Counted from the first letter of the stretch, positions 30,815-63,660 are shown. The stretch: 64,000 nt of DNA from Carpediemonas membranifera BICM (GCA_019828565.1 JAHDYR010000019.1:55984-119983); one strand, 5' to 3'. Numbers and translations: made by a program. Notes: generated by a model from the letters alone, not told the origin.

Positions 30815-31906
30815 CATGGAGGATACGCGCGCCCTCGATAAGATTCGCGAGCTTTCAGGCGAATTAGCCGATGCTGATTACCGTAAGGTACTCGATAACG
30901 CCTTAGCGACGATCGCTCGTTGTCAGCGTCATAAGGCCCGATCCCTGAGCGCTCTTCGACAGAAGGCTATCCGTAAGCGCTATGGAGATGCGTCGAAGAA
31001 CCCCCTGAAACGGTTTGTGCACCTCCGGTCCTCTTACACAGCTCGATCGTAGTGCCGGCAACTTCCGCCAGAGATCTCTGTCGGGTGCCTGCGGGCGGTG
31101 CCATGCAGGGTTGCTTCACCCACCGCGACCCTCTGCTGTCCGCTGTGGTGCGTGATTGCCTTGCGGGGTATGTCAACTTCGTTGAGGTGCCCCTTGAGGC
31201 CATCTTCGACCATCTATCCACCGGCACGCTCTGGAGCGGGGATGCGGGCGCCCTCCTCGACATCTCGGCCACTCTGCTGGTGCAGCTCCAGAGGGAGCAC
31301 CGCGCCTTGCGCTTTCTCCGTGAGCGCTCCGGCAGCCGGGGTCAGACCGACTCGGACATCGTCCGCGCCGCCATTTCCGCCGGCGTGTTCCACCTGAAGA
31401 GTGACGGTACCTCCAACCAGTACGTCAGCCCCCAGGTCCTGTCAGCGCTCGGCCGTGCACTCGGCTGTGGCTCCAGCATGGCTCGCCAGACCCTCTACCG
31501 CGTGGTCGTCCTGGCTCTCGCGCCGGAGTACTACCGTCTGTTCCTCCACGGCGAGCGCTCCGATCACGTCTCGGTGACCCAAGCCCATTGGGCCGCCCTG
31601 GTAGCCAACCTCCGCCTCATGGACGAGCTCCCATCCCTGCCGCAACGCCTCGGCCTGGCCCTGCAGGTCTCTGACCCTGAGCGTGAGTATGACGTCCTGG
31701 ACGTGTTAGGTCATGAAATCCTGACCGCTGGCCCTGACCGTCGCCTCATCCTACATGTGCAGTACGAGGGCTACACCGCCCCCACGTGCACTGGTCTGGA
31801 CTCAACCCTTGCTGCGGTCACCGTGGTCCGCGAGTACCTGGTGGACTTCGGGCTTGAGGACTGGATCAACGGTCCTGACGACGAATCCGATGACGACTAT
31901 CAATAA
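30815..31906 (+). CDS. Antisense accessory gene of G with C-terminal chromodomain-like module; 29-nt intron 31013-31041 (start codon uncertain, 30732-30815)
   Basis: GTTTGT...TTACACAG removal joins the two ORFs in frame; EYDVLDVLGH...LHVQYEGY chromo-like motif; homologous to D and H antisense ORFs. Confidence 0.8.
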
Positions 31907-37004: not shown

Positions 37005-37936
37005 TGTAGCCTTATGGCTAGGGAAAGATTGTTTAATATAAGAAAACCCATGATGTGGTGAATATGGTCAATACTATATAAATCTATGAAATGGTAATCC
37101 TATGTAACATTGGGTAAGACCCACTGCACTGCCCCTCCAGTGCCTGCAAGGCACGACCTCAAGCAACGCATATATATGGTCGGCAATAGCCGATGAGGAT
37201 TAGTGAAGTGACAACCGCTTCGAACGTACGAGAGCCACCAAGTACGATCGAAACAGTCTACTCTATTGGCGGTAGAGTAGGCTATGTCTGCCCTTCAGGC
37301 CTTGATCTACGATCTTAGCCAGTATTATGTAAAGATATGGTTGATACTATTATTCGAATCTGTATCTATAAAAATCTTGTGGTACCACTATATAAACGCG
37401 CGCGCTAAGTTAGGTATAGGGTATCTTACATGTCCCTGCCCCTCCACGGCCGGAATACGGCCGTGATTGTGGCGGTTTGGTTCGGCTGTGCATTTTATGG
37501 CACAATGAACCGCGGTTTCGAAAGTTTCACTATACGCGGTATGCAAAGCGCTAGCCAGCGTATAGTTGTCAAAAATGGGGTTTTCAGCCCTCAACGACGC
37601 TTCGTTGGCGAGTTCTCGACGTTTTTTTCTTTTCGGTGCCGAATGAAGGTGCTGCTCTGCGCTACGTGTGTCCTTCATGAATAACAACATCAATACTTAG
37701 TAAAAGCCTTCGTTGCTGCACTGTTTGTGGGATATTGAGGAGTATCTTCACGATTCTCCTCAAGGCTTCATGAGCGTCATCGAATCGACCTCCTGCGCCC
37801 AGGCTCCGGTCATGATCATGGCTGCTATGGTCTGCGGGTTAGTCAGCTAGGTTGCAGTAGTTCCCATAAAGTACGATAATTACGTCAATGCATGTAAATG
37901 CTGCTTTGAAGGATTTCAAAGCAGCCGTTTGAGGAT

Positions 37937-39177
37937 ATGGAGAATTATACCGCCGCAATGAAGGCTATAATCGAGGAACTAAGCGATGACGATGACATTG
38001 CCGCCCTCAATCGCGTCTTCCGCCACGTTATTCGCAAGCGTGCTCGTCGACGCGTTGGATCTACCGCCAACTCCGACAACACGACTAATCAGTCCTCCAT
38101 TGATGCTTCAACAACCGCTACGGGCTCAACAGTCAACGATCAGGAGCGCCAGCCCGATTCCAGCGTGGTTCCGGCAACCGTCGTCGGCGATTCGCGTCCG
38201 TCTCGCCGTGCTAGAGGCAAGCGCCGTATCGGCGTCCGTGATCGAGTTCTCCCGCCGGCAGTCACGGGCGCGGACGTGGTGTTCGAGCCTCCCCGCATTG
38301 ATCGCGCCACACGGCTGCGGGGTGAGCTCGATCACGTCATCTCGACGGTCACGGCGACGTTATCGACATTCTCATCGCATCTAGAGCTGTCAGTGCAGCC
38401 GTTCCTCGATGTGTTGATGAGCGGTGCGCTTAACCAGGCATCGCTGACCTCCGTTCAGCGCCTCGACGGTGGCGTCATCGCTCTGTCTGGGGCAGTCGAT
38501 GACTACTATCTGCTTGTCGGCTTCCGCAAGTACTTCGATCTTGGCTCCGGTGTCAGCGACCGGGAGATCATGAACCAGGTATTCAACGGTCGCCGTGCCG
38601 GCGATATCCGCCGGGAGGTCCTGGATGAGGCGGCACGCCTTCTTGCCGTTGGGGTCGACACGGCACGTAGCCACGTCCGCCGGCTCTATCTTCTTACGCA
38701 TCATGTTCCGTATTATGCAGTGCTACAGCACGCGATCTGGAGCCGGGTGCTGCAGGGCCGGCAGTGCCTGTATCGATTTGCCAATGACTGCTACGCCCTT
38801 GCCTGCGCCGAGGAGCTGCCGACCCTCAGCCTCCCCCCCGGTAGGTACCCCGGTTTCTTCGTCTTACACAGGATATGACCCGCTTTCAGGTCTACGAGCG
38901 CGACCGGTATTATCGCGTGCTGGCTGTGCGTGGTCACTGGTGGCTGTTCGTTGAGCAGGCCTACCGTGGTCGCGCTGGCTCCTTCTTGCTCCTTGTCGCC
39001 TACGACGGGTTCCCTGAAGCAAGTCTGACGCCGGTTAACGCAGACCTTGTCCGCGTGGCTGTGGTCAACCAGTACCTCAGGGCTCATTCCGAGCTCTGGG
39101 ACGTTCTGCCTGAGTCCCTGCAGGTAGAGTTGGAAGAAGTGGTGACCAGTGACGAGGAGTCTGCCGGTGACGAGTAA
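37937..39177 (+). CDS. Antisense accessory gene of H (ORFs 37937-38878 and 38875-39177; probable short intron 38841-38871); chromodomain-like C-terminus
   Basis: IRKR, SDREIM and PYY motifs shared with D and G; YRVLAVRGH...LLVAYDGF aligns with the G chromo-like module. Confidence 0.78.
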
Positions 39178-39239: not shown

Positions 39240-42011
39240 CTATCCGTCTGTATTGTTCGCCAGGAAGATGTCGAGAGCTGCGCAGTCCTTAACGTTCTTA
39301 TATGGTTCCCACGTGGCTTCTTCGTCCTCAAATCCGGCCCAGTGCACGAGGTACTTCTTCTGCGACATGGTACCTGACCCGCGTGCTGCTGAAATGCGGT
39401 CGACCAACCACTCGTCCCTGCTAGTTGCAGCGAGTTGCTGGATCTGGTCGTCAGTTAGTGTACCGGGGTTGAACCTTCGCACTCGTGCGGCATCGACCTT
39501 GATGGTCTTACCATTCGTGGGTGACTCTGCCATGTCTTGGACTTCATATGCCACGGTGACGCCTGATTGCTTGATGCTCTTAACGCGCCTCATCGGGCCT
39601 CTCCACCCTGGTGATAGTTTGTCAGGTGGGCGAGAGGGGTACTTGACCAAGACGTAACGACTCAGGATCTCCGTACGCGACGAGACGGCCTTCGACCACG
39701 CGTCCTCCTTCATCGCTTGGATGCGAGCCTTCGCCAGCTGAATTGCCGCGTCGGCGGCTGCCCGGTGTGACTGCTTGGCGCTCGCTGATGCTTGCTTGGT
39801 AACGTATATTGAGCTAGGCACGGTGAGGTTATATCCCAGGACGATCTCAGCCGGTGATAGGCGGGTTGGGACTCGCGGCGTGGCGTTGATGATAAAGCTC
39901 GCGACAGGCAGGTGATGTATCCAGTTAGAGTCTCTTATGTGGAACTTGCGTGCCTTCAAGATGCGTAACACCTCCTTGTTGGCTCGCTCCACCATCCCGT
40001 TTGACTGTGGATGGTGGGCCGTAGTGATGTGCGTATCAAAGCCCAACTCCTTGGACAACCGTTGGAATAGCTTGTTGTTAAACTCTGGCCCTCCATCGGA
40101 CTGTAACACCTCTGGGCACCCGAAGCGCAGTACCCAGTTGTTGACGAATGCGTCAGCTGCTGCTTCGGCTGTGGTCCCGGAGACGGCAACCAGCTCGGTC
40201 CACCGTGAGCACATGTCGACCATGACCGTAATGTGCGTCATACCGTCCCGCGTTGGGAATGGCCCCATAGTGTCGATCGCTACGCGTTTGAACGGGGTCT
40301 CTACAGCCGTATGTAACCCGGCCACAGTCTGCTCGGGTGGTCGTTCTAGCACTTGGCACGTGGGGCAATGAGAGATGAACTCGTCCACAGCTGAGCGGGA
40401 TACGCTCAACCCGTCGGCTCTCAGTCTGTCGATTGTCTGTCTTCTCGAGAAATGAGCGCCTGCCATCTCGTGTGCCTTCTTAATCTGATCAGTGGTCGCC
40501 TGGGAGCGTACGGTGAAAACTCTCGATAGTCCGTCGGCTCCGGCGTTGTCTAAACCTGCAACATGCTCAATACCGAAGTCTAAGTCGGACAGGGTGTCAG
40601 CCCATCGCTTGACCTTGGCGTTAACGCTCCGGAACATGAACAGGAGGTTCCTGTGGTCGGTCAGGATTGTGAAATGGCCCCAACTGAGGAACTTGCGCCA
40701 GCGTTGCACGGCAGCTATAATGGCGTACGCCTCCTTCTCACTGGTAGACCATCTCGACTGCACCTCATTAAAGGCCTTACTCATATAGCATACTGGCCTA
40801 CCCTCTTGGAGGAGTACTGCACCGTAGCCGAGCCCTGAGGCATCGGTCATAATAGTGTGCTCCTTAGTCGCGTCGAAGATGGCGAGTGCGTCCGCCGATG
40901 TGAGAGCATCCTTGATCTTCTTCAGCGCTGCGTCCTGTTCAGGCTGGCCGATAGGCCTGCGCCCGGCCATTGCCTCAGTCAAGGGGAGGGCGATCTCGGC
41001 GAAACGGTCCACGTGATCTCTGAAATAGTTCAGAAAGCCTACTAAGCCCTGCATCCCACGGACGCTCTTGGGCAACTGGAGCTCTGCAATGTCGGCTACC
41101 CGGTCGGGGGGCGATGTGTTTCTGCCCCTCGGAGATTACCCAACCTAGGAACTCGACCTCGGCACGGCCAAACTGGCACTTCTCCCTATTGAGCTGTAAC
41201 TTTGTCTCGCGTGCGCGAAGGAGGACCTTGCGGAGATTCTGGAGATATTCCTCTTCGCTTGCCCCGAAGATGATGATGTCGTCAATGTATATATAACAGG
41301 CTGTGCCGACCAGCCCCCGGAAGGCGGACTCCATAGCCCGCTGGAAATGGGCTCCAGCATTGCGTAGCCCAAAGGGCATCCGACAGTACTCGTACTGCCC
41401 CAGAGCCGTAGTAAATGCGGTGTACTGGCGGCAGCGCTCGGTCAGCTCGACTTGGTGGTAACCGGCGGAGAGGTCGAGGGTTGCGAAGACCTTCTTCCCC
41501 GCTAGCTGGGAGATAACCTCGTCAATACGAGGTATGGGGTAGTTGAAAGGTTCGGTGATGTCGTTAATTTGTCTGAAGTCAACTACGAATCGGGACTTAC
41601 CCCCTTTCTTGGGTACTGTCATCGCGGGCGAAGCGTAAGGCGATTGACAGGCACGGATAAATCTCTTCGCCAGGAGAGCGTCAATGTGCTCCTTGACGAC
41701 GGCTACCTTCGCCGGGGGGATGTAGTATGGTCGCGCGTTCACGACCCTGTCACTCTTCAGGATCAAGTCGTACGGTTCGAGCTTGCTTGGCTCGTTGCGA
41801 TCTTCGAACACTGCGCTGAACTCCTTGAGAATCTTGGCCTGTGTATCGCTCGTAGTGGGGTTCAACTGGTAGACGGCAGCGTCGAACTTGGCGGGCGACG
41901 GAATGTCCAGCTCGTCGCTACCCTCCTTGTTCCACTCAGCCTGAGGGAGTATACCCAACTCAACCATATGGGGGTACCCTAGGATCAGGTCGAAGTCGGT
42001 GTCGAGTAGAA
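39240..42011 (-). CDS. pol: pol of H (RT-RH-INT-chromodomain), frameshift in a homopolymer run near 41105
   Basis: LDLSAGYHQ, YIDD, MTDAS, CPTC, SDGGPEF, KYLVHWAGF...TWEP. Confidence 0.94.
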
Positions 42012-42486
42012 TCAGTTCACCAATGATTTCAGCAAAGTGGAAACACTTCGATCATGGATGGACAAGGACCAACAGGCCTGGCCTATATGGATAGGGCAGT
42101 GCCCCATGGAGCTCAGAAGGAGCGGCCTTGGCCTCCTGTCTGAACATTCAAGGGTTGCTATCAGGGCATACCGCTGGGCGCGAGTGGGAGCTCCACGCCC
42201 ATACCAAGGAATCAAAGTGTCTTCATGGAACGTATGTTTACAAGGAAAAGGAAAACAACCGTCGAGGGCCAGTGCTAGCACCGGCGGCTACATGGTTTTG
42301 TCAAGACCACAAGGAAGGAAGGGCAGCACAAAAGGGAAACAGGGGCCGTCGATAGAGGCTAAAAAGGAGACTACGAACAAAGCAACAACAACTACACAGA
42401 AAGGCCCCGCTACTCAGAAAAGGGCGACGCATTTTTAGGACCGCGCCTTTTTGAAAGAATGGCCTATATAGTACGGAGCATGGACA

Positions 42487-43443
42487 ATGGGAGAAACTGG
42501 AAGGCCTGGACGGAGACCTCACCCGGATATGTACATGTGGCCCGACTTTCGGACCCAAAAATTCCGACCCAGTTTATGGACTAGGAAAAGGGGAGAAATT
42601 TTGCACTCAACAATGCAGGTAGAAATACCGACAAGGATCAGGGATTCCACGCAGAAGCAGTGGGAGGACATCAGGGAACTACTGGACAGCTTCCTCGCTG
42701 AAAGGAACGATTCAAGGACTCTACTTCTTCGTAGAACAGGCAAGTTTACAGGAAAGTCGCTCAATGCGAACTCCAAAGGACGCAAGGAAGTAATCATGAA
42801 CGCCAGACGCATCCTCTTCGCAACCGGCGTCACTGACAACAAGGACATCATCCTCAGGAACCCATGCGGCATCCACGGCCTCCGCGACCTTTTCTACATG
42901 CTCACAGAGGCGCTCAACCCCAGAGACGAGGAAGCAAAGGACATGGCACAGGCACTGGAGCCCAAGACGCTGAAAGCGGGCTTCACTGGCATGGCAAGAT
43001 GGCCATCTGAGAAGGACATCGAGACGGCGATCCTCAAGCCGAAGGAAGATGGGCCCATCGAATGGGATGTAGACAGGGACAGCGTCAAGAAGGCCGAAGG
43101 GTCGTTCATACTGGTATCAGGGGCTCATGGAGACGAGGCCGTAGAAGGCGTGCCTTACGACAAGGTATGGGATCCGGCAAACCAAGGCCCGGTCACCAGA
43201 GTGGCCTACGAGCAAGAGGACGGCAAGTACAGGGTCATCCTAGAGCTAAGCGACACGTCAGCATGGTCCATCAGCCGCTTCATGGAGGAGGCTAGGGACA
43301 TCCTCAGGCTTCAGGCACCGGAGGCCCCGGCCATATGGCAGGCAGCATGGAACAAGTCAGGGATCTACCTGAAGGGCAGAACCAATATCCTGGGCGAAGG
43401 GGAGGAGACCCCCTTAGCAACGAGCCGCCGTTCCGGAAGGTGA
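42487..43443 (+). CDS. LINE ORF1-region segment, unknown function
   Basis: 318-aa ORF overlapping neighbours; probably part of one long frameshifted ORF ~42020-45989. Confidence 0.55.
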   Translation: MGETGRPGRRPHPDMYMWPDFRTQKFRPSLWTRKRGEILHSTMQVEIPTRIRDSTQKQWEDIRELLDSFLAERNDSRTLLLRRTGKFTGKSLNANSKGRKEVIMNARRILFATGVTDNKDIILRNPCGIHGLRDLFYMLTEALNPRDEEAKDMAQALEPKTLKAGFTGMARWPSEKDIETAILKPKEDGPIEWDVDRDSVKKAEGSFILVSGAHGDEAVEGVPYDKVWDPANQGPVTRVAYEQEDGKYRVILELSDTSAWSISRFMEEARDILRLQAPEAPAIWQAAWNKSGIYLKGRTNILGEGEETPLATSRRSGR

Positions 43444-44828
43444 GGCTGGAAGTGCTCAAGGCCACCTCGGTCCGCAGCAATAGGGACGAACATGCCGATC
43501 TGGACAGGTCGTCCGCTAGCACGGTCATCGACGGAGACGAGGAGCAACATGTCAAGGACAAGGAGGAACGACGCCAGCAGGCCACCATGCCCGGCAGAAG
43601 AAGCCTCGACGACAGCCTCCTGGAAGTGAACAAGGACATGGTCGGGGCCAACCAAGGCAAGATCGACCAGGACGAGGAGGTCGACTCAAACAAGGTCAGC
43701 AGCCAGCCGCCGAGGATGCCTAGAAAGGACAAGGAGAAACGGCTGGTGATCGGAGCCATCGACTTCGAGTGCGCAGACCCTGGCGTCAAGAAGGCAGGGA
43801 TCCCTGCCATCCCGGTTGAGGGCGGGATCGTACTCTTTGACCTCAGCACTGGGGACATTCTTGGACACGGGCATGGCCTGTATTACCAGGACATACCGGC
43901 AGCAAGCATGGACCAAGCGAGGTACACGGCATGGGCAGTGACGGGGCTGCCGCCGGCCACCTTCGTGGAGGTCGGGACGGGGCGGCCGCCGATCGAGTAT
44001 GAGAAGCACATACATACTTTCAGGGACTGGGCCAACCGCCTGGCGGCTCAGCTGGCAAGGATCGAAAGGTCGGAGGGCTGGAAGATAATCATGTATGCAA
44101 AGGGGGTGGAGATGGAAAGCTTCCTCCTCACGAACCCCACAAATGGACTGGAGCAAGGAACCAGGGAATTCTTCCAAGCTAGGCTGGTGGACGAGAAGAA
44201 GCTACCAGAGATCCTGGAGAACAACGGCAAGGAGGAGGCTGGCCAAAACCTCAGGGACAACCTCGACAAGGCCAACTACCTGGAAGCAGTAACAACATGG
44301 TCAAATGGATGGCAGAACAGGAGCGAGCCCAAGGGAGTCTGTCCGTACCACAGACACACCGCGGGTTGCTACCACTGTGGGTTGGCGGATACAGTAGTCT
44401 TCACAGCCAGGATCAGGGCCCTATGCAAGGAGAGGATGAGCACCCCAGACGTCTACCACTACATGGGTAAGGCACTCGACAAGACCATGGAAGCAGTCGG
44501 GAAGGCGGAGCCGGGCATGGATATCATGGGAGGCCCGGAATTCGCGACAAGGAGGGACACCTTTGAGATCTTCGGCACGTACCCGATCGGGGACGCAAGG
44601 GACGTCAGCAGGGAAGTCGGCGACAGGATCCTCGTAGTCCCGGACAACGGACACCGCTTCGGCATCGGCTTCGGGTTCGGGGAGGTTCTGTTGGGCATGA
44701 AGGGCATCTTACTGGCCCCCCTCACAATCATGGACAACGAAGGAGTGCTGGAGAGAAGCCCACTATGGACCATCATGGAAGAGCCACGGCTAACCAGCTC
44801 CGCATGGTACGCGTCAGGAAGGGCCTAG
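43335..44828 (+). CDS. LINE ORF1-region segment with Maelstrom-like / arenavirus NP-like DEDDh nuclease domain (ECHC Zn site)
   Basis: IDFE...IPVEGGIVLFDLSTG...H...TGLPP...KGVEME...CPYH...HCGLAD. Confidence 0.78.
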   Translation: MAGSMEQVRDLPEGQNQYPGRRGGDPLSNEPPFRKVRLEVLKATSVRSNRDEHADLDRSSASTVIDGDEEQHVKDKEERRQQATMPGRRSLDDSLLEVNKDMVGANQGKIDQDEEVDSNKVSSQPPRMPRKDKEKRLVIGAIDFECADPGVKKAGIPAIPVEGGIVLFDLSTGDILGHGHGLYYQDIPAASMDQARYTAWAVTGLPPATFVEVGTGRPPIEYEKHIHTFRDWANRLAAQLARIERSEGWKIIMYAKGVEMESFLLTNPTNGLEQGTREFFQARLVDEKKLPEILENNGKEEAGQNLRDNLDKANYLEAVTTWSNGWQNRSEPKGVCPYHRHTAGCYHCGLADTVVFTARIRALCKERMSTPDVYHYMGKALDKTMEAVGKAEPGMDIMGGPEFATRRDTFEIFGTYPIGDARDVSREVGDRILVVPDNGHRFGIGFGFGEVLLGMKGILLAPLTIMDNEGVLERSPLWTIMEEPRLTSSAWYASGRA

Positions 44829-45038
44829 GGGCAGCAAGGGAGGAGGACATCATAACCATGGCCATGCTATACGAGTGGTGGCCCTCGAAGGAGGCTACGG
44901 CTCATCAAGGAGTCTGGGGCTGCGACGACCTAGCAGAGAGCCTCAGGGACTATGAGAAGGTCATAGTCAACGTCAAGGCCCCCAGGAACAGGGGGTAGGA
45001 TCACCCTAGGGGCGAGCTTCATCCCGAGAGACTGGGGC

Positions 45039-45989
45039 ATGGTCAGGGTCAGCGAGGCTGGGACCATCCTAAGCCGCATGCGCAAGGAAGGGGCCAGACT
45101 AGTCTCGGCAGCTATCCCGGACGAGCCCAGAGCCAACACAGTCAATGTCCCAGGCATCACGTATGTCCCCACCATCGACGGAAAGTCCGAACAGCCATAC
45201 CAAAGTAGGTTCTTCGACAACGGCCTGGAGGAAAAGGCGAGGCGGATTAGCACCAGGATGGTGGGCAGGCACTTCGGCCAGGACGCGGATCAAGGACATC
45301 ACGACCAGCATGGAGACAGGGAAGAGGACAGAAGGGTAGGACACGGAGCCGGCGGTAGAGCTGGTGTCAGAGCTGACGACAGAACCGGCGACAGAGCTGG
45401 TAACATGAACAGGACCTCGGATCGTAACCACGGAGGAGACGACAGGGAGAGACAGGACAACACGGGAACGCAGATGAGAGGCTCGTTCAGCGGGAACACC
45501 TGGGCCGGTAGAGGCTCAGAGGGAGGCATGGACAACAGCAAGGATCACTCTTCCTCCACGACGCTCAAGCGCAAGGAGGGCAGCACGAGTAGGATCATGG
45601 ACTCGGACAGCGGAAAGAGAAGCAGGCACGAAGAGGACATGGACTGGGAGTCTGGAAGCAGACAGGCAACCGGCATGGACTCGGAGAAGCTGCGGCTCCG
45701 AAAGCAGTTGGCAGAGGCGCAACAAGAGATCTCAGCGCTCAAGGCTGCCCGACTCATGCAAGAGCAAGGCCACGGAAGGTTGGTGCTCTCCGGCGTCGCG
45801 ACTAAGCCCAGCAAGGAGAAGCCCACGATCCCCCGGCACAAGCACAAGAAGGCTAAGAAGGCCAAGCAGATCTCACCCATGGACCTGATGACCCAGTTCA
45901 TCACGGTAATGCAGAGTCTACAAGGACAGCAAGTGAGGCAGGCCGAGGACAGCTGCAGCGGCAGTGGGGAGTCCACGGAGGAGGAGTAA
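45039..45989 (+). CDS. LINE ORF1-region C-terminal segment (low complexity, coiled coil, basic patch)
   Basis: 316-aa ORF; LRKQLAEAQQEISALK heptads; KHKKAKKAK. Confidence 0.55.
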   Translation: MVRVSEAGTILSRMRKEGARLVSAAIPDEPRANTVNVPGITYVPTIDGKSEQPYQSRFFDNGLEEKARRISTRMVGRHFGQDADQGHHDQHGDREEDRRVGHGAGGRAGVRADDRTGDRAGNMNRTSDRNHGGDDRERQDNTGTQMRGSFSGNTWAGRGSEGGMDNSKDHSSSTTLKRKEGSTSRIMDSDSGKRSRHEEDMDWESGSRQATGMDSEKLRLRKQLAEAQQEISALKAARLMQEQGHGRLVLSGVATKPSKEKPTIPRHKHKKAKKAKQISPMDLMTQFITVMQSLQGQQVRQAEDSCSGSGESTEEE

Positions 45990-46321
45990 GGACATGGTAA
46001 AGCAGTATTCTTTCAAGGAACAAGCAACATTTTCTTTATAATTCACAAGCCCTGGCTCCCACCCAGGGCCCGGCATTAGCTGAAACGCACTGCCGGTAGG
46101 CTGTAGCGGCAGCCAAAGGGGGGGTCACGTCATATCGTCCCCCTCCTAAGTACCCTGCCCGAAGAATGGAAGGTCACCAGGTGGTAACAAGGTTGGCCTG
46201 ACAAGGGTCACCGAGACCGGCATCTAGGCCCCTTGTCAGGACAAGGATAGCAGGAGAGGAGCGGGAAGCTGGGGCTCCCAAATTCTGGGAATTCGCAGGA
46301 TAAGGAAACAGGACAAAGGCA

Positions 46322-46947
46322 ATGGTAACCTACAAGATACTTAGTCTGAACACAGAGGGACACATAGGAAGAGGAAAGGACTTCACGGCGTCTATGGCAA
46401 CGGCGATTCAGCTAAGGTTGAAGGACATAGAGGCAGTACTCATACAAGAGACATGGAGAACGGCGAATACGAGGGTTCATTGCTTCATGGACCTTGACTA
46501 CGCACTAGCAGGGAGGGAGACGGAAGAGGACCTGGTCTTAGCCAACGAAAAACGAAAGGCGGATGTCAAAAGTCAGCACCGCATCAACCGACAACTAGGC
46601 ATAGCAGGCAATGACGAACCTGCGCCAAGATGGAAGGGAACAAGGGAAGGCATCGGCACGATAGTGAGCCCACACGCAACTGCAAAGTGGGACATCGGCA
46701 TATCGGACAGCCTATCGGGAAGAGTGCAAGCCAGCATAATGAGAACCGGCAGGGACATACTAGTCATCAACGTGTATGGCCCTCCATCCGGCCACAGCAA
46801 GCAGGAGAAGGATGGATTCAGGGACACTATACAGAAGATCATGGACATGAAAGGGAGCATGGAGGCCATAATTATGGGAGACTGGAACATCGACCCAGGC
46901 CAGATGGAAAGATCCACCCGGTGGAAGGATATGATGGAGAAGCACAG
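46322..46947 (+). CDS. APE-type endonuclease of LINE ORF2, N-part (interrupted by J)
   Basis: ILSLN, LIQETW, INVYGP, IIMGDWN. Confidence 0.9.
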
Positions 46948-47045
46948 TGTGAGCAGTTTAGGGTACCAACTACACGTGCGAACCCTATAAACAGTTTGTT
47001 TTGAAACCTTTAACCTCGACAAGATCACAGTGTACACTCATCTAA

Positions 47046-50000
47046 TGTCCGACTACATACCAAGACCTTTCTTACTAACACTAGAAGAACAGGCGTTCAC
47101 CAAGTTCCGATCGTCCTACCGTGCGTACCGAGCTCAACGCCTTGACGATCCTCTTCTCCATCCGACTGCCCTGATGGATCCTACGCCTCTTCTTCTCATC
47201 ACACGCCGTCTCAACGACAATCCGGCCGATCTTCCGGCGGATACTGTCTTGGACACAGTCTACCAAACATTCTATAGCCCCCGCAGTAACGTTCAAGCAC
47301 TAGCCAAGCTGAAGTCGCTGCGGTGCGCCCGAACGGGCCCCTTATCAACGCCTGCACAGCTTCTCAACCATATCGAACGCTTCGAAACTATCCGGAGCTC
47401 GTTCACAGCCGACGTCACACCACCAGAGAAGCTAATGGTGAAGGCATACCTGCAGGCACTTCCAGATCCTCTTGCGGAGCGTATCCGCATGGAGCAGCCA
47501 GATGACGTCGCAGAGGCGCAGGACCACGCCATTGATGAACTGGAGGAACTCCTTAACCTCCAGTCGCTCCTGCAGCCGGAACCGGCCCAGCCAGCTGGTA
47601 AGCGCCCGACTCCCGGCGCCGCCGCTGGGGCTAGACTACCCCAACGATCGTCTGCCCCTGCCACGGCTGTGGCCATACGGGCCACATCCGCCCCAACTGT
47701 CCCTATCAAGGACACAGAGATTTCTTCCGCTCTGGCGTGCGCAAGACTCCCATCCAGGGTCCGCCAGTCAAGCGCGAAAAGGCGAATCTGGCCGCCACTG
47801 ATCACGACGGCCTCATCTGTCGCCAAGCCACTCTCTATGTTCCCATCAACGAGAGTACTGCCACAGAGGTCTGTGCAGTACTTGATACTGGTGCAACTAT
47901 TGACCTCATCTCCCCCACGATAGCCGAATCATTTATCCAACGTGGCGCTCTTCCAGCCGTCGCTAACGTTCGTTTGGATACCGCGAACGGTCCAGTTTTC
48001 ATCAAGAGAGCTGTGTTCCTTGCCATGCTCATTGATGGCGTTCGCTCCATTCGGCCATTCTACATCCTCCCCTCTATGTCGGAGGATCTGATCCTCTCAA
48101 ACTCCACTATCCAAGATCTCTCCCTCTCCTTGGCCCCCAACGGCCGATGAGGAGACGATCGATGAGGATCACGCACCCGTCACTCGCCTAGATGAAGGAG
48201 AGCAGCTCCCTGACGTAGGTTCAACCGCGTCTGCCCTCCCGCCAGCCATCAGAGCCGTCTATGATGAGTATGCCGAAGTCTTCACCAGCCGTCCCCACCC
48301 AGACGGAGCAGACGTTCCCCCTATGGAGATAGAGCTGCTTGAGGGCGCCACACCGGCTGCTCAACCGCCGCGTCGTCTATCCCCTGCAATCCAGCAGGAG
48401 GTTGATGACCAGGTGAACGAGCTCCTTGCTCAAGGAATCGTCCGCCCCTCACGCTCTCCCTGGGCTGCACCCGTCTTTACTGTCCCCAAAAAGGGCGGTG
48501 CCCGCCGCCTCGTCGTGGACTACCGTCAGGCGAATGATCGCATCAAGCAAGTCAGTTTCCCACTTGCACACCAAGAAGAGCTGATGTCGCATCTCGCAGG
48601 CCAACGTTGCTTTGCGACGTTAGATCTCGTTAGTGGATACCACAAGATCCCACTGTCCGAAAGTTCCATTCCGATAACCGCGTTTTCAACTCCAACCGGC
48701 CTTTATGAGTATACGCGCGTTCCATTTGGCGTCAAAACGGCTCCTGCTACCTTCCAGGCCATCATGACCCAATTGCTCTCCAAGTTTGTCGGAACTACGT
48801 GCGAGGTCTTCATAGACGACATCATCATTCACGCATCAACCACGGACGAACTAGCTACACGCCTAGCTGAGATCCTTGCCGTTCTCAAGGAACATCGCTT
48901 CGTCCTTCATCCCAGCAAGTGCTGTCTGTACGCTGAGCAGGTGGAATACCTCGGCCATATCATCTCCCCCGAGGGAATCCGCATGTCCCCCGCCCGGGTC
49001 AAGGCCGTTCAGGCCATGGCTCCTCCTAAGGACATCAAGACCACGCGGGCCTTCTGTGGAGCGATGAATTATTTCCGTAGGTTCATCCCCAACCTCAGCT
49101 CGATCCTACAGCCACTATACGCCCCTCACCTCTGGGAAGGTCCGGTGGAAATGGACAAAGGAGGCCCAGACTGCTTTCGAAGAGAGCAAGAACCTCGCCG
49201 CCCACACGCCGTGTTTAGCCTTCCTGGACTACTCTGCCCCAATTATCGTTCGCACCGATGCTAGCGACATTGGCTGTGGAGGCGTGCTCCTCAACGTCAA
49301 GGATGGCGTTGAACACGTAGTCTCCTACTGTAGCCACGCATTCACCACCGCAGAGCGCAACTGGGCTGTCATCGAAAAGGAAGCCTTCGGCATCTTCTTC
49401 GCGGTTGTCGAGAAGTACTCCCCCTATCTCCTCGGCCACTCGTTCGCTATACAGACAGACCACCGTAACCTAGTTTATATGCGCCGTTCTACCACACCCA
49501 AGGTCGTCCGCTGGAACCTCAGACTCCAAGAGTTCGACTTTGTCGTTGAACACATCTCTGGCGTCTCCAACACCCTCACTGATGGCATATCCAGGTGCTT
49601 CATCGTCCAACCCCCGAGAATGCCCCTACACTCCAGCGACTTATCATAGCCTCTGTCCACAATGCCGTCGAGGGACACCTCGGCCGAGAGGCTACACTCC
49701 GCCTCCTTAAGGAACGAAACCTTGACTTCCGTGGAATGAGCAACGCTGTCGCCGAGTATATCAAGGCTTGCCCGATATGTCAGAAGAACGCCAGACTTCC
49801 CAAGCGCCTTCAGACAGGCCTCCGCCCTACCATGGGCGTCACCCCACGCTCCTGCTGGGCGTTTGATACGGTCGGGCCTTATCCTGCAGACTCCAACGGA
49901 TGCCGCTACGTTATCACCTTCATTGACACCTTCACACGCTTCGTAGAGCTGGTCCCATGCAAGGATGCTTCTTCTGCAGAGGCCCTTCGCGCTCTTATCT

Positions 50001-50881
50001 CCGTCACGGGACGCTACGGTACTCCGTCTTCTTTCCGAAGTGATCGCGGTTCTCAGTACCTTGCCACCGCTTTCCAACAGCTCATTAAGCTCTTCGGCGC
50101 CCAACACGTTGTCTCTCTTCCATACCACCCCAGAGCCAACGGGCTCGTCGAAAGAGCTAACGCCGAGCTCTCACGACACCTACGTACCATCACTCAGGAG
50201 CTGCGCGACGTTAACAACTGGTCCCTTTACCTCCCAGTCGTCCAGCGGATCATGAACACCACGATATGTGCCACCACGGGCATTGCCCCCGCACAGCTCA
50301 TGTTCGCTTCACAGAACGTCACCCCCTTCCTGTCGTCCGACGCCCACGTTGAGGAGGAGAAGAGTGAATACGGCCGCTTCTTTAGCCGTGTTCTCCAGGC
50401 CCAGCCCAAGCTCATTGAGACAGCACGCCAGCACCAAGAGAACGTCCTCTCGAAACGTCCGGCTTTCGGCGACGAGCCCCTTCCTATTGGCTCGAAGGTG
50501 CTTGTCACGCGCCCTTCGAAGCGCCCCACCAAGCTGTCTACTAAGCTCGTTGGCCCATACACGATCACTGACCGCGAGCACGACATCTACACCGTACACA
50601 ACCCCACTGCCGGCGCCACCTTCCAGTATCACGGTTCCCGGCTCGTGGAGTACGACGACTCCCTGGCCTTCGATGACATCACCGTCGCCTCCCTTGACGA
50701 CGACACCTACGAAGTCGAGGCCATCACCCGCCACCGTGGTGGCCCCACGAAGTCTACCCTCGAATTCCTCGTCGCCTGGGATGGCTACCCAGGCGCCGAT
50801 GAGTGGCTCCCGTACCACGAGGTCCGCGACCTCGAAGCCCTCGACATTTATGCCGAGGCTCACCCGGAGCTGCACCTTTAG
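47046..50881 (+). pseudogene. gag-pol: gag-pol of J unit 1 (several frameshifts)
   Basis: Knuckle CHGCGHTGHIRPNC, LDTGA, FIDD, RTDAS, CPIC, SDRGSQY, chromo YEVEAI...FLVAWDGY. Confidence 0.93.
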
Positions 50882-50987
50882 AGGGGAAGTGTGAGCAGTT
50901 TAGGGTACCAACTACACGTGCGAACCCTATAAACAGTTTGTTTTGAAACCTTTAACCTCGACAAGATCACAGTGTACACTCATCTAA

Positions 50988-53900
50988 TGTCCGACTACAT
51001 ACCAAGACCTTTCTTACTAACACTAGAAGAACAGGCGTTCACCAAGTTCCGATCGTCCTACCGTGCGTACCGAGCTCAACGCCTTGACGATCCTCTTCTC
51101 CATCCGACTGCCCTGATGGATCCTACGCCTCTTCTTCTCATCACACGCCGTCTCAACGACAATCCGGCCGATCTTCCGGCGGATACTGTCTTGGACACAG
51201 TCTACCAAACATTCTATAGCCCCCGCAGTAACGTTCAAGCACTAGCCAAGCTGAAGTCGCTGCGGTGCGCCCGAACGGGCCCCTTATCAACGCCTGCACA
51301 GCTTCTCAACCATATCGAACGCTTCGAAACTATCCGGAGCTCGTTCACAGCCGACGTCACACCACCAGAGAAGCTAATGGTGAAGGCATACCTGCAGGCA
51401 CTTCCAGATCCTCTTGCGGAGCGTATCCGCATGGAGCAGCCAGATGACGTCGCAGAGGCGCAGGACCACGCCATTGATGAACTGGAGGAACTCCTTAACC
51501 TCCAGTCGCTCCTGCAGCCGGAACCGGCCCAGCCAGCTGGTAAGCGCCCGACTCCCGGCGCCGCCGCTGGGGCTAGACTACCCCAACGATCGTCTGCCCC
51601 TGCCACGGCTGTGGCCATACGGGCCACATCCGCCCCAACTGTCCCTATCAAGGACACAGAGATTTCTTCCGCTCTGGCGTGCGCAAGACTCCCATCCAGG
51701 GTCCGCCAGTCAAGCGCGAAAAGGCGAATCTGGCCGCCACTGATCACGACGGCCTCATCTGTCGCCAAGCCACTCTCTATGTTCCCATCAACGAGAGTAC
51801 TGCCACAGAGGTCTGTGCAGTACTTGATACTGGTGCAACTATTGACCTCATCTCCCCCACGATAGCCGAATCATTTATCCAACGTGGCGCTCTTCCAGCC
51901 GTCGCTAACGTTCGTTTGGATACCGCGAACGGTCCAGTTTTCATCAAGAGAGCTGTGTTCCTTGCCATGCTCATTGATGGCGTTCGCTCCATTCGGCCAT
52001 TCTACATCCTCCCCTCTATGTCGGAGGATCTGATCCTCTCAAACTCCACTATCCAAGATCTCTCCCTCTCCTTGGCCCCCAACGGCCGATGAGGAGACGA
52101 TCGATGAGGATCACGCACCCGTCACTCGCCTAGATGAAGGAGAGCAGCTCCCTGACGTAGGTTCAACCGCGTCTGCCCTCCCGCCAGCCATCAGAGCCGT
52201 CTATGATGAGTATGCCGAAGTCTTCACCAGCCGTCCCCACCCAGACGGAGCAGACGTTCCCCCTATGGAGATAGAGCTGCTTGAGGGCGCCACACCGGCT
52301 GCTCAACCGCCGCGTCGTCTATCCCCTGCAATCCAGCAGGAGGTTGATGACCAGGTGAACGAGCTCCTTGCTCAAGGAATCGTCCGCCCCTCACGCTCTC
52401 CCTGGGCTGCACCCGTCTTTACTGTCCCCAAAAAGGGCGGTGCCCGCCGCCTCGTCGTGGACTACCGTCAGGCGAATGATCGCATCAAGCAAGTCAGTTT
52501 CCCACTTGCACACCAAGAAGAGCTGATGTCGCATCTCGCAGGCCAACGTTGCTTTGCGACGTTAGATCTCGTTAGTGGATACCACAAGATCCCACTGTCC
52601 GAAAGTTCCATTCCGATAACCGCGTTTTCAACTCCAACCGGCCTTTATGAGTATACGCGCGTTCCATTTGGCGTCAAAACGGCTCCTGCTACCTTCCAGG
52701 CCATCATGACCCAATTGCTCTCCAAGTTTGTCGGAACTACGTGCGAGGTCTTCATAGACGACATCATCATTCACGCATCAACCACGGACGAACTAGCTAC
52801 ACGCCTAGCTGAGATCCTTGCCGTTCTCAAGGAACATCGCTTCGTCCTTCATCCCAGCAAGTGCTGTCTGTACGCTGAGCAGGTGGAATACCTCGGCCAT
52901 ATCATCTCCCCCGAGGGAATCCGCATGTCCCCCGCCCGGGTCAAGGCCGTTCAGGCCATGGCTCCTCCTAAGGACATCAAGACCACGCGGGCCTTCTGTG
53001 GAGCGATGAATTATTTCCGTAGGTTCATCCCCAACCTCAGCTCGATCCTACAGCCACTATACGCCCTCACCTCTGGGAAGGTCCGGTGGAAATGGACAAA
53101 GGAGGCCCAGACTGCTTTCGAAGAGAGCAAGAACCTCGCCGCCCACACGCCGTGTTTAGCCTTCCTGGACTACTCTGCCCCAATTATCGTTCGCACCGAT
53201 GCTAGCGACATTGGCTGTGGAGGCGTGCTCCTCAACGTCAAGGATGGCGTTGAACACGTAGTCTCCCTACTGTAGCCACGCATTCACCACCGCAGAGCGC
53301 AACTGGGCTGTCATCGAAAAGGAAGCCTTCGGCATCTTCTTCGCGGTTGTCGAGAAGTACTCCCCCTATCTCCTCGGCCACTCGTTCGCTATACAGACAG
53401 ACCACCGTAACCTAGTTTATATGCGCCGTTCTACCACACCCAAGGTCGTCCGCTGGAACCTCAGACTCCAAGAGTTCGACTTTGTCGTTGAACACATCTC
53501 TGGCGTCTCCAACACCCTCACTGATGGCATATCCAGGTGCTTCATCGTCCAACCCCCGAGAATGCCCCTACACTCCAGCGACTTATCATAGCCTCTGTCC
53601 ACAATGCCGTCGAGGGACACCTCGGCCGAGAGGCTACACTCCGCCTCCTTAAGGAACGAAACCTTGACTTCCGTGGAATGAGCAACGCTGTCGCCGAGTA
53701 TATCAAGGCTTGCCCGATATGTCAGAAGAACGCCAGACTTCCCAAGCGCCTTCAGACAGGCCTCCGCCCTACCATGGGCGTCACCCCACGCTCCTGCTGG
53801 GCGTTTGATACGGTCGGGCCTTATCCTGCAGACTCCAACGGATGCCGCTACGTTATCACCTTCATTGACACCTTCACACGCTTCGTAGAGCTGGTCCCAT

Positions 53901-54823
53901 GCAAGGATGCTTCTTCTGCAGAGGCCCTTCGCGCTCTTATCTCCGTCACGGGACGCTACGGTACTCCGTCTTCTTTCCGAAGTGATCGCGGTTCTCAGTA
54001 CCTTGCCACCGCTTTCCAACAGCTCATTAAGCTCTTCGGCGCCCAACACGTTGTCTCTCTTCCATACCACCCCAGAGCCAACGGGCTCGTCGAAAGAGCT
54101 AACGCCGAGCTCTCACGACACCTACGTACCATCACTCAGGAGCTGCGCGACGTTAACAACTGGTCCCTTTACCTCCCAGTCGTCCAGCGGATCATGAACA
54201 CCACGATATGTGCCACCACGGGCATTGCCCCCGCACAGCTCATGTTCGCTTCACAGAACGTCACCCCCTTCCTGTCGTCCGACGCCCACGTTGAGGAGGA
54301 GAAGAGTGAATACGGCCGCTTCTTTAGCCGTGTTCTCCAGGCCCAGCCCAAGCTCATTGAGACAGCACGCCAGCACCAAGAGAACGTCCTCTCGAAACGT
54401 CCGGCTTTCGGCGACGAGCCCCTTCCTATTGGCTCGAAGGTGCTTGTCACGCGCCCTTCGAAGCGCCCCACCAAGCTGTCTACTAAGCTCGTTGGCCCAT
54501 ACACGATCACTGACCGCGAGCACGACATCTACACCGTACACAACCCCACTGCCGGCGCCACCTTCCAGTATCACGGTTCCCGGCTCGTGGAGTACGACGA
54601 CTCCCTGGCCTTCGATGACATCACCGTCGCCTCCCTTGACGACGACACCTACGAAGTCGAGGCCATCACCCGCCACCGTGGTGGCCCCACGAAGTCTACC
54701 CTCGAATTCCTCGTCGCCTGGGATGGCTACCCAGGCGCCGATGAGTGGCTCCCGTACCACGAGGTCCGCGACCTCGAAGCCCTCGACATTTATGCCGAGG
54801 CTCACCCGGAGCTGCACCTTTAG
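50988..54823 (+). pseudogene. gag-pol: gag-pol of J unit 2
   Basis: Near-identical to unit 1; the differences seen are homopolymer indels. Confidence 0.93.
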
Positions 54824-54917
54824 AGGGGAAGTGTGAGCAGTTTAGGGTACCAACTACACGTGCGAACCCTATAAACAGTTTGTTTTGAAACCTTTAACCT
54901 CGACAAGATCACAACAG

Positions 54918-55800
54918 GCTCAAAGCCATCATACCCAAGTCTGGGACACTCACATCAGGAACATCAACCCCGGACTTTGCAGTGACAACACCAGGAATCC
55001 AGGGGGCGGAGATTGAGGTGGTAGAGTCTCAGAAGGTCGGGGTATGGGGCTCAGCACACAATGGAATCACACTAGCATGGAAGGAACAACGGTACTATGG
55101 CAGAAGTGAGCGAGACGTGGCTCTGGCCATACCCGAGGTGCACACCTGGCCCATGAAAAAGAAGGAGGGGCCAGTCACAGTCTCAAAGCTGAACAGGATC
55201 AAGAGCTCGGACCAATGGGAAGAGACTATAAGAGCATGCATGGGCGACCCAGTGAACAACAGGGGAGCAAAGGCAAGGGACAAAGTGTTCGGGAACGGAG
55301 TGTGGAGCGAACTCCAGCGAACCCCATGGACAGAAATAGGCAACAGGACCTATGAGAGCCATCACAGAGCTGGCCCAAGGCGCTGACCTGAAGAGAGAAA
55401 TTAGCAGACTATGCCCCCTATGCTCGGAGGAGTCGGAGGTGAGCCTGTTCTACAGGATCATTAGGGAAAAGCCAGGACCAGCAAGGAAGCAGGAAATGAT
55501 CAGGGGAGTGGGCAGAGGGCCAGAGGCTAGGATCGGCAGCGCACATAATCTGTGAATGCCCGGCAGTAGACAGGGGAGAAGCTTGGACAAAGCTGTGGAC
55601 AGCAGCGAAGCACAAAACTAAGGACTTGGAAGTAAGGCAGGGCCCCCAGGGCGAATGGTACCAGGAAAGACCCATCCTAGAATTACAGCAACTAATAATA
55701 TGGGGCTCGGAGGACATTTGGGAAGGCCTCACGGCAGGACTACGGGAACTGGCAAAGGTTTACAACAGCTTCAAGGTGGAATAGAAGCATGTCATGAACC
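54918..55800 (+). pseudogene. LINE ORF2 remainder: APE C-terminus joined to C-terminal Cys/His domain, RT missing
   Basis: TPDFAV...SAH (SDH-like), then CPLC...HIICEC within ~0.6 kb; no YADD or other RT motif found. Confidence 0.75.
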
Positions 55801-56697
55801 CCTGACTCCAGGACCGGGAAGGGATGGACAAGGAATCAGCCATGGACCACCCTCGCTGGTGCTAAGCTCCTGGGATCAGTGAGGAAAGGCCCCACGTATC
55901 CCGGTAGCCAGGAACCAAAGCAAGGGAAGGAACGACTGCAAGGAAATAACAGGAAGGACAGACCAGAAATAAGAAAGAAAGGACATGCGACAAGGACAGA
56001 GCAAGGATAAGGTCAAGGAAATCCATATTCATATGGTTGCACCACTCGTTGGGACCCCAAGGAAACTGCAGGGACTGGCCACGGGGGTCGGAGGGGCACA
56101 GGTGCCCCTGCCGCCCTTGTTAACGACATGGGAAACCAAGGACATGTAGTGCAAGCGAAATGTTGTAAGGGGTAACAGGACAACCAGGCCTAGTGCCTGG
56201 GGCTGCCGCTGACCCACGCCACCTAACCGGGGTAGACAGCATGGACTTAGTCACTTTCCCCGCCTTCGGGTAGGCTTCTTAACAGAGTCGAGGGGGCATG
56301 GAATTGGGGAACCGGACAGACGAGAGGGTGCCGTGGCTGAACGGCTCTGCAAGGACTGCAGGGAAGCAAGGAGTGTCATAGTCAAGGTTCTGCAGGACGA
56401 TCCTGCCTGTCAATGCCCCGAGGACAGACCCCCAGGCTCCCCGGATAGTTGCCGGACTTTCAGGGAGACAGGAAAGCATATTTGCACGGAGATGGCCGCA
56501 GGGCCTCTGGGGCGATTGGAATCGGCTTTCCGCGGAGACAGTAGCACCGAAAGCCCAAGGCAAACGCTGCTGACCAGTTTGCCACGGGAAATAGGCAGTA
56601 CCCCGGGGCACTCAGCTCCAAGACAACGGGAAACAAGCTCAGTCCGGGGTCAGAATCCAAGCACCATAAATTTCTTTCTTTCTGGTGTCGAGTAGAA

Positions 56698-57859
56698 GTA
56701 GCTCGGCGTTAAATGTACAAGTGCGCGGGGTGAACGATGATGGTTGCAGCTTAATCGTAGCGTTGACTCGACCCTGTGACTGTTTCTCGCCGCCTGCTGT
56801 TGCGACACGCTCCTGCGTGGTGGAGATGACCTCGAGCTTGGCTGCGTGGCGAGGGTGGATGCTTGACACGTTAGCTCCCGAGTCTAATAACGCTGTCAGC
56901 TTCTGCTTGCCTACTGAAACCGGAACGAGTGGTAGGTTGATCTTGGACTTGGACTGATCTGCACTGATAGAGAGAGAATATTGCGGAGATTTATCCCGAC
57001 AATATCTCTCCAGGTGACCAGTCTTCTTGCAGATCGAGCACGTGTGCTTCGGCTTGGGGCACTTGTGCCATGCGTGCTTGCCGCCGCAGTTCCAGCAGGT
57101 GTAGTCGCGCTTCTTGTCAGTGCTACTGGGATGGGGCTTACGCTCTGACTTATCCCGGTTCAGCGTCTTGTTGCTTCCCTCCTCAGACGGCAGCGGCTGG
57201 CGATAAGGATGGCCGTTGCGGCCTGCTCTCTTTCTGTTACCGCTAGGATGGCCGCCTGTCGGGTGAATGCTCTTGGGGTGCTTCTGTCCGTCTCCTAGGT
57301 ACGCTTCTCTCAGCTCTTCGCCGTCCCGCAGCTCGGTGCTAATGGCGAGTACCTGAGGCATGGCATCACTCAGAGTGGAATCTTCGATCAACTCTTGAAT
57401 GCGGTACATAGTTCTGCCTGTTCCCTGCTTGAAGCAGCGGGCGTACGTCTTACACAGTGTCTCCTGTGATGACTCGGGTTGCAGAATAGCCAGCAATGTC
57501 TGAAAGCGCTTGTTGATGCGTACCACCTCGCTAGGCGTGAAGGATGTGGCGTTCAAGCGGAAGTATTCAAGCCTTGCTACCTCGTGGCGTGGTCTAAAGG
57601 CCTTGCCGAGACGCTTGACACAAGCGATGTCTTGTTCGCGCCGGCGTGTAGTCTTGGTCTTGATGAGCGCCACGGGAGGATCGTTGTCGTCCGTGCCGAG
57701 TACTCCGTCAACGTAGTCACGGACGCAGCTGTCTATTAGGCGGTCTGAGCGCTGTTTTCCGCCGAGTGCTCGATAATCTTGGAGCGCTTCCACGAACGTG
57801 ACTAATTCAGCCACGGACGTGCCCTTTAGTATCGGCGCTTTGGCCTTCCCGTATACCAT
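56698..57859 (-). CDS. gag: Gag-protease N-part of H
   Basis: CWNCGGKHAWHKC, CSICKKTGHLERYC, LLDSGA; the frame continues (LLDTDFDLILG) at 41997. Confidence 0.93.
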
Positions 57860-58007
57860 GTTGGTGGGATTAGTACTAATGTAGCCTTATGGCTAGGGAA
57901 AGATTGTTTAATATAAGAAAACCCATGATGTGGTGAATATGGTCAATACTATATAAATCTATGAAATGGTAATCCTATGTAACATTGGGTAAGACCCACT
58001 GCACCGC

Positions 58008-62998: not shown

Positions 62999-63660
62999 TG
63001 CAAAATTCTTCTAACTAACGACTGTGCCGATACTGGCGCCTCTTCGGGGCTCTGCAGCATCATACGCGCCAGACTTCTCGTACTTCCGACCTGCACTGGC
63101 TGCCGACAGGTCTGAGGTGGTATGGTCCGATGGACATAAATGGCTCATGCATATAAAGCTATAAATTCACGCAAGTGTTGCCTCGGTCATACAGGCACTA
63201 GACTGAGCTAGCGGACGACATTGCTGGGTGGTCTCGCGTGCAGGTTGCGGAGCGGTGGGAAATTCCTCAGCGGAAGCGCCAGTCTCTGGCTGTGCCTCTC
63301 CGGGGCTTCCTGAGGAGGGCGATGGCGAGGGGCCTGGATTGGTGCCGGCGTGACCGGGACCCTCGAAGCGAGGATGGACATATGCTCGTTAAACGCAACC
63401 TCACGACTATTCTGGCGTGGATTCAAAGCCATGGGGAGCAATCTCGGCGTCATCAACGGTTTGGATGAGGACGGCTTTGTTGTAAATCCTCTGACGACCC
63501 CTGGCCGTTGGCGGCGAGCGCCCGACCGGTGAGCCCGTCCCCGAGCATTCTTCTGACTCGGAGGAGCACACAGCTGAAGACTGGCGCCCCATCCCCCGCC
63601 AATAGTTGACCATCACCACTACCATAAACTATAAACGCCTCATGTATTTACCCCGCCCCC

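Follow-up and report, generated by a model that had tools for sequence, protein, structure and literature searches.

A predicted DEDDh-type nuclease domain with Maelstrom-like features in ORF1 of a LINE family from Carpediemonas membranifera

We analysed a window of 64,000 nucleotides from Carpediemonas membranifera BICM (GCA_019828565.1, JAHDYR010000019.1:55984-119983), counting positions from the first letter of this stretch, and found that a predicted DEDDh-fold nuclease is the central ORF1 domain of an APE-type LINE family and is conserved across divergent subfamilies. As far as full-text literature searches reach, a conserved nuclease in a LINE ORF1 appears to be a new architecture: in the openly searchable full-text literature we found no LINE ORF1 reported to contain a nuclease of the Maelstrom or DEDD type, and no such report among papers on Carpediemonas retrotransposons. 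Exchange of RNA-binding modules is already known for LINE ORF1 proteins, some of which carry an esterase. The domain described here would place a Maelstrom-like domain on the transposon side of the silencing conflict, and would add a third setting for the DEDDh-plus-ECHC design to the two known from host piRNA factors and arenavirus nucleoproteins.

The LINE, its insertion site and its ORF1

The LINE-derived element (42012-56683, plus strand; 6.7 kb without a nested gypsy element) is bounded by a 14-bp target-site duplication, as initially annotated, with copies at 41998-42011 and 56684-56697 (plus strand), the left one lying within a minus-strand Ty3/gypsy pol. Flanking gypsy ORFs at 40975-42051 and 56639-57886 place the insertion of the LINE in this pol. 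AT skew is +0.33 in the element versus −0.11 and −0.22 in the flanks. Along with the duplication, the window shows the LINE hallmark of a simple-repeat 3′ end, (TTTC)3T at 56671-56683 and not poly(A), which closes a 3′ untranslated region at 55785-56683 (plus strand). There were zero Rfam matches in the two arms of the element.

ORF2 opens with an APE endonuclease and closes with a CCHC-type knuckle. The N-terminal part of the endonuclease (46322-46947, plus strand) matched PF14529 (E = 2e-4) and PF03372 (E = 2e-3), which is under the curated Pfam cut-off because the domain is interrupted by a nested tandem Ty3/gypsy element; its uninterrupted twin, protein P0007, passes that cut-off. The nested element (46948-54913, plus strand) is foreign to the LINE and consists of two 3,942-bp units with three identical LTRs and a 4-bp duplication, and its empty site is present both in an X1 read contig and in P0007 (99% identical protein). 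It is of the chromodomain type, and its LTRs are only 82 bp long. Beyond it, the end of the APE domain and a linker (54918-55347, plus strand; 100% identical to P0007 209-349 and 51% to P0008 209-352) halt at a deletion, and are followed by the frameshifted C-terminal domain of ORF2 with its CPLC..H..C knuckle (55346-55784, plus strand), which is 61% identical to P0022.

Reverse transcriptase (RT) is absent from the window copy: the APE linker runs straight into the C-terminal domain at about 55346, and we therefore conclude that the RT has been deleted and that this copy is a non-autonomous deletion derivative. A protein of a sister subfamily (P0023) retains an RT remnant: it starts with FVDD, matches RVT_1 weakly (E = 0.052, which is below cut-off), and its C-terminal knuckle domain is 48% identical to that of the window. 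The gene model of P0007, which probably includes a predicted intron, shares its final 27 residues with the window, suggesting a second RT-less copy. ORF1, APE and RT were found together in none of the records examined.

The initial annotation had named an ORF at 43335-44828, which is not a separate gene. The stop-to-stop frame concerned (43296-44828, 510 codons) proved to be the middle fragment of a longer ORF1. Two homologs, P0002 and P0005 (849 aa), run as one protein from the upstream frame through this one into the beginning of the third; P0003, P0006 and P0024 (863 aa) are continuous from the nuclease to the C-terminus; and P0012 is a single ORF of 1,129 aa in locus L001. As homologs join the three frame pieces of the window, ORF1 here spans 42613-45989, roughly 1,125 codons, and is broken near 43415, 44780 and 44985; a stand-alone ORF of 497 aa was ruled out because homologs read through it.

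Assembly error is the likely cause of these breaks, real decay being the alternative. C-runs lie at two of the three, and at the first P0001, which is 99% identical, reads across in one frame. At the second an X1 read contig has one extra A behind 44778, at a depth of 3.8 and itself fallible; the X1 read contigs leave out 43352-44157 and the RT-deletion junction. An internal control is provided by the two 3,942-bp gypsy units, which have no substitutions between them and are identical but for two single-base indels, each in a C-run. In locus L002 there is an ORF1 frameshift within the nuclease at a run of seven C (2465-2475), and both halves keep all nine key residues.

The reconstructed ORF1 can be divided into five parts, all on the plus strand. 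The N-terminal domain (42613-43419) begins with MQVEIP, has the first frame break at its C-run (about 43410-43420) and is 58.5% identical to P0002 1-270, compared with 52% for the nuclease. A charged and little conserved linker follows (43420-43742; 33% identity to P0002), then the predicted DEDDh-fold nuclease domain (43743-44426) and a conserved region with no assigned fold (44427-44996), which has frame breaks at about 44780 and 44985. The C-terminal part (44997-45989) contains an FIPR(D/E)WG motif, an R/D-rich low-complexity region and a short predicted coiled coil, the latter called by eye and from weak coiled-coil Pfam matches in homologs. Both of the conserved regions around the nuclease, 42613-43419 and 44427-45030, are without a family match. 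The database name of P0003, 'Splicing factor U2AF', was rejected, as this protein is an ORF1 fragment with the R/D-rich region.

The spacers between ORF1 and ORF2 in the window (45990-46150), L001 (5250-5400) and L002 (4650-4810) all carry GGTAAAG 6-22 bases past the stop codon of ORF1. Next comes a pyrimidine-rich tract, which is long in L001 and L002 and weak in the window, and then a GGGGGT run and a C-run; these motifs could represent a processing signal, an ORF2 translation element or a short intron.

Several other features of the window should also be noted. An isolated stretch of 194 bp at 18360-18553 is 80% identical to part of the 3′ untranslated region of the element (56111-56302), and some 45 bases at its core are nearly identical; Rfam gave no match for either. 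We read the stretch as a piece of a related element and as a candidate cis-acting RNA. A frame of 160 codons at 56213-56695 has several Cys pairs, and an X1 contig has a 10-base insertion near its start. Three unannotated ORFs (37910-38878, 38845-39177 and 30977-31906; 322, 110 and 309 codons) lie beside gypsy elements on the strand opposite to their pol and are possibly LTR-element accessory genes; the first has no significant Pfam match and the last ends in a stretch which is chromodomain-like by eye. Of the long ORFs listed, just one is obviously not from a transposon, an unbroken, host-like gene of 937 codons (60197-63010, minus strand) with stretches resembling EF-hand and C2 domains by eye.

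Motifs and predicted fold of the nuclease domain

All of the motifs initially reported in the domain were found in one plus-strand frame, at the positions given for them: IDFE (43758-43769), IPVE (43809-43820), FDLSTG (43836-43853), TGLPP (43941-43955), YAKGVEME (44094-44117), CPYH (44340-44351) and HCGLAD (44373-44390). Within these, the predicted catalytic residues are D 43761, E 43767, E 44115, H 44373 and D 44388, and the predicted zinc ligands are E 43818, C 44340, H 44349 and C 44376. Across all six frames, the window has a single C-x2-H..HC-x3-D motif. The looser order D.E..E..CxxH..HC...D was found in none of 200,000 shuffles of the domain; this pattern was written after seeing the sequence, which overstates its significance, and a stricter version does not match even the domain itself, so that conservation in homologs is the stronger test.

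In an alignment of 13 rows with 26-51% identity to the window, the expected residue was present in 8 of the 9 rows covering the column for ExoI D, 9/10 for ExoI E, 9/9 for the zinc-site E and 11/11 for the ExoII E, followed by 11/11 for C, 11/11 for H, 10/11 for the ExoIII H, 11/11 for the second C and 11/11 for the final D. The single miss for ExoI E is a row with a non-homologous N-terminus; the other exceptions are a Tyr for the first Asp in P0010 and a Leu for the general-base His in P0014. The seven full-length domains agree without exception in 27 of the first 235 columns. The ExoII candidate, assigned by its position, is a Glu and not an Asp, and lies where the helix that follows strand 4 begins. 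The H-x4-D spacing of ExoIII is conserved and equals that of Lassa H528/D533. In model numbering, C202, H205, C214 and D218 are separated by steps of +3, +9 and +4, and the spacing of 9 from H to C was found in all 12 sequences covering it (P0016 being read from its second Cys).

The residue set of MAEL is reportedly EHHCHC (Zhang 2008). A His precedes G47 in 9 of 10 rows, and 3 of 10 have another one at the T/H-GLPP column; these may correspond to the two further conserved His of that set.

An AlphaFold model built from a 17-row alignment had a pTM of 0.80 and an overall pLDDT of 77; most of the domain scored 85-98, residues 51-90 being a weaker stretch. Its predicted strands at 2-14, 25-34, 41-49, 115-121 and 150-152, with flanking helices, would form an RNase H-like DnaQ core. 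In a VIA search against 48,161 chains the best 26 rows were all DEDD-fold proteins (Z 8.2-10.4), headed by Maelstrom at Z 10.4 and 10.3 (192 residues aligned) and followed by ESRP1, ERI1, RNase T and REXO2 at 10.0-10.2, with LCMV NP at 9.3 and Lassa NP at 9.1. A second structural comparison gave Z 10.7 for Bombyx MAEL (201 aligned, rmsd 4.2) and 10.6 for RNase T. Taken overall, the top Maelstrom rows (Z 10.3-10.7, 187-201 residues, rmsd 3.8-4.2, 9-13% identity) were the longest alignments, reaching model residue 248-252. Maelstrom is first by Z, yet its lead over RNase T, ERI1, Orn and the ESRP1 domain is less than 1, which amounts to a tie.

In Foldseek, which the initial annotation had proposed as a check, oligoribonucleases came first and Drosophila MAEL (4ybg) ninth by E-value, with the top TM-by-query (0.39) among the matches listed. 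In the Atlas search, models of the RNase_T family reached TM 0.57-0.63, and the language-model score (0.89) made arenavirus NP a lead. A single-sequence model (pLDDT 44, no clear Foldseek match, best VIA Z of 5.8, to Maelstrom) was not relied on.

Structural alignments begin with model residue 2 on Bombyx 115 and on Lassa 382, and if strand 1 is ungapped, model D9/E11 falls on Bombyx D122/N124 and Lassa D389/E391. The zinc ligands of Bombyx MAEL are given as E137, C290, H293 and C302, and its catalytic positions as D122, N124 and R306 (PMC4408791); the numbering D389/E391 and H528/D533 for Lassa NP follows PMC3675627.

There were no Maelstrom or arenavirus family matches in Pfam, PHROGs, NCBIfam or PDB sequences; even with an E-value limit of 10, neither the window nor 8 aligned members matched the Pfam Maelstrom profile, and Arena_nucleocap gave no match either. 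The domain is therefore called Maelstrom-like and not a proven member of the family. We regard the fold assignment as firm, with a DEDDh fold very probable on the basis of the model and a zinc site predicted at E28-C202-H205-C214. The assignment to a subfamily rests on this zinc motif, from which the domain is probably true kin of the MAEL/NP clade; membership of the Maelstrom family itself is not established. Of the initial description as a domain of Maelstrom/arenavirus-NP type, the DEDDh fold and the ECHC residue set were thus borne out, and specific Maelstrom kinship, with its tied Z-scores and lack of Pfam or PDB matches, was not.

Copies of the domain, linkage to APE and selection

A profile of three sequences was compared with 1.84 billion representatives and identified 13 proteins at E ≤ 0.001, of which seven are from Carpediemonas membranifera and the other six lie on contigs of 3.8-10.8 kb. 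With cluster members included, 11 C. membranifera proteins on at least 8 contigs contain part or all of the domain, which is a dispersed multi-copy family. Pattern scans, which reach close relatives only, found none in viral contigs (99 candidate stretches), metagenome contigs (252), prokaryote genomes (293) or phages. A tree of the domain used 12 of 14 rows (P0017 and P0020 were left out as short) and has no outgroup, so that it is silent on origin.

In the window, ORF1 lies directly upstream of the APE endonuclease. At the two loci of another assembly, L001 and L002, the start of APE follows within about 370 bases after ORF1 (tblastn E = 1e-9 and 2e-8; no Pfam match for these APE fragments), and the adjacent locus tags J8273_5906 (ORF1) and J8273_5907 (APE start fused to gypsy) are a further case of the linkage. 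The linkage to APE and RT which had been sought in other copies was thus confirmed for APE and not for RT, which is absent here and has no joint record with ORF1. The APE gene of J8273_5907 (P0009), from a sister subfamily, is also interrupted by gypsy, at another position; these LINEs sit in nested transposon clusters.

The nuclease dN/dS was 0.27 between L001 and L002 (bootstrap 0.17-0.41; 213 codons), in agreement with purifying selection, which the initial annotation had proposed to check, and was 0.34 between the window and L001, where synonymous sites are near saturation. Between L001 and L002 the remaining ORF1 gave 0.33-0.39 and APE 0.11. The nuclease domain is thus under purifying selection, though not clearly more than the rest of ORF1. 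A one-off chimera with a host mRNA, which the initial annotation had named as a way in which it could fail, is excluded by the many copies and by this selection; nor does its other such condition apply, the lack of any profile or structural match to the DEDD/Maelstrom fold. Its suggestion that a retrotransposon had captured or retained a nuclease holds insofar as the domain lies inside a retrotransposon; the nuclease is an integral ORF1 module and not a stand-alone captured gene.

Possible roles and comparison with known systems

The one protist MAEL tested, that of Entamoeba, carries both the DEDD and the ECHC residues and is described as an active exoribonuclease which degrades single-stranded RNA (PMC4408791), and because of this analogy the element domain is also quite likely to be catalytically active. 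A nuclease borne by ORF1 would probably travel with the element's own RNA and may degrade strands paired to it, such as antisense or double-stranded RNA, and the removal of such duplexes could damp host silencing. ORF1 proteins coat their own single-stranded RNA, and a resident exonuclease would for this reason be easiest tolerated if it preferred duplexes, as arenavirus NP does. To our knowledge such an enzyme is dispensable for the transposition of most LINEs, among them those with simple-repeat tails, and this points to an accessory function related to conflict.

In arenavirus NP, RNA coating is combined with a nuclease that prefers double-stranded RNA, at least 10-fold in the report on Lassa NP (PMC3675627). 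Against a duplex-RNA role, the tested protist MAEL degrades single-stranded RNA. By analogy with NP, we tentatively consider that the domain may destroy duplex RNA, a role which we put at slightly short of an even chance. The reading as a whole, that of an active, zinc-stabilised DEDDh 3′-5′ exoribonuclease of the MAEL/NP type which degrades RNA paired to the element RNA and so damps silencing, is offered as possible with the same reserve. Related diplomonads are described as variable in their silencing genes, with Dicer and Argonaute in Giardia and not found in others (PMC11437800).

It is more doubtful whether, as a broader statement, these LINEs encode their own RNA-silencing suppressor by joining ORF1 to a dsRNA-destroying exonuclease of the MAEL/NP clade and so converge on the design of arenavirus NP. 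If this were true, an active nuclease would represent a mobile-element reservoir of the fold which animals made into the anti-transposon factor Maelstrom. With a domain of 230 residues and clear catalytic residues, enzymatic RNA defence by LINEs and the origin of the MAEL fold become testable.

It is unlikely, though worth weighing before other alternatives, that the nuclease serves replication, either by trimming the 3′ end of read-through transcripts to (TTTC)n for target-primed reverse transcription or by clearing RNA:DNA hybrids. RNase T and ERI1, which share the tied top Z-scores, are 3′-end trimmers; the tail of the element is a simple repeat and not poly(A); and the domain is retained in every subfamily found, as a core step would predict. 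The transposition of most LINEs without the domain, as noted above, counts against such a step, and the fold is that of a DnaQ-type exonuclease and not of RNase H. The same role has been proposed for the DEDDy ORFs of rotifers (PMC5408684), and C. membranifera is reported to be without eukaryotic RNase H1, with two prokaryotic-type copies present (PMC8516963).

An RNA-binding or scaffold module, as in metazoan Maelstrom, which replaces RRMs or zinc knuckles and in which catalysis is weak or incidental, is improbable. No ORF1 homolog scanned has an RRM or zinc-knuckle Pfam match, Bombyx MAEL is described as binding ssRNA without cutting it (PMC4408791), and a catalytic residue is lost in two homologs (P0010 and P0014). 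However, almost every homolog, even at 26% identity, retains all five catalytic positions, whereas metazoan MAEL is reported to have lost them (PMC4408791), and the ORF1 tail, which is R/K-rich, could by its composition bind RNA instead. A DEDDh exonuclease of a generic kind, perhaps derived from a giant virus or a phage, with a convergent Cys/His motif and possibly acting on DNA flaps at insertion, is the least probable, for although the nearest language-model clusters are bacterial and Nucleocytoviricota exonucleases (scores 0.91-0.94), the best viral fold match is a Catovirus exonuclease (E = 1e-4) and the Z-scores are tied, the domain has four extra invariant residues in Maelstrom order and spacing, its longest structural alignments are to Maelstrom chains, and the ECHC site is described as confined to Maelstrom and arenavirus among the structures compared (PMC7968707).

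We compared the element domain, read as a MAEL/NP-type nuclease, with systems which have previously been described. MAEL is reported from animals and protists and has been linked to arenavirus NP (PMC2628886, PMC7968707), and the relevant passages of these papers make no mention of copies in mobile elements. The protist MAEL nucleases (Entamoeba EHI_192630; Zhang 2008, Chen 2015) resemble the element domain in having a DEDD-type set together with the E..CxxH..C set in one DnaQ-fold domain, and Bombyx MAEL has an identical C-x2-H-x8-C-x3 spacing (H293-C302 = 9). In contrast to protist MAEL, the element domain lies inside a retrotransposon ORF1 and not in a host gene, has a Glu at ExoII and has no HMG box. 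The exonuclease of arenavirus NP (Lassa, LCMV) is alike in its DEDDh residues, ECHC-type site and H-x4-D ending, and in both cases the nuclease is fused to a protein that coats RNA or, for ORF1, is expected to coat the RNA of the element. The element differs in that it has neither the NP core domain nor a sequence match to NP, and in that its host is a free-living protist without interferon.

A precedent for a DEDD exonuclease carried by a retroelement is provided by the LTR elements of bdelloid rotifers (Juno, Vesta) and the Athena/Terminon elements, for which DEDDy exonuclease ORFs with a DEED variant, and in Vesta2/5 a Cys-His-Cys motif, have been described (PMC5408684, Rodriguez 2017). By that description these enzymes are set apart as RNase D-like, DEDDy and encoded by separate ORFs of LTR or Penelope-like elements, whereas the domain described here is DEDDh and lies within the ORF1 of an APE-type LINE. 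Esterase ORF1s are reported in CR1, L2 and RTEX LINEs (PMC5408684), and in CR1, L2 (ZfL2) and RTEX, as in Carpediemonas, the enzyme is part of a gag-like ORF1 with a coiled coil upstream of an APE-RT ORF2; the enzyme of those elements is an SGNH hydrolase (esterase), while that of the Carpediemonas LINE is a predicted nuclease.
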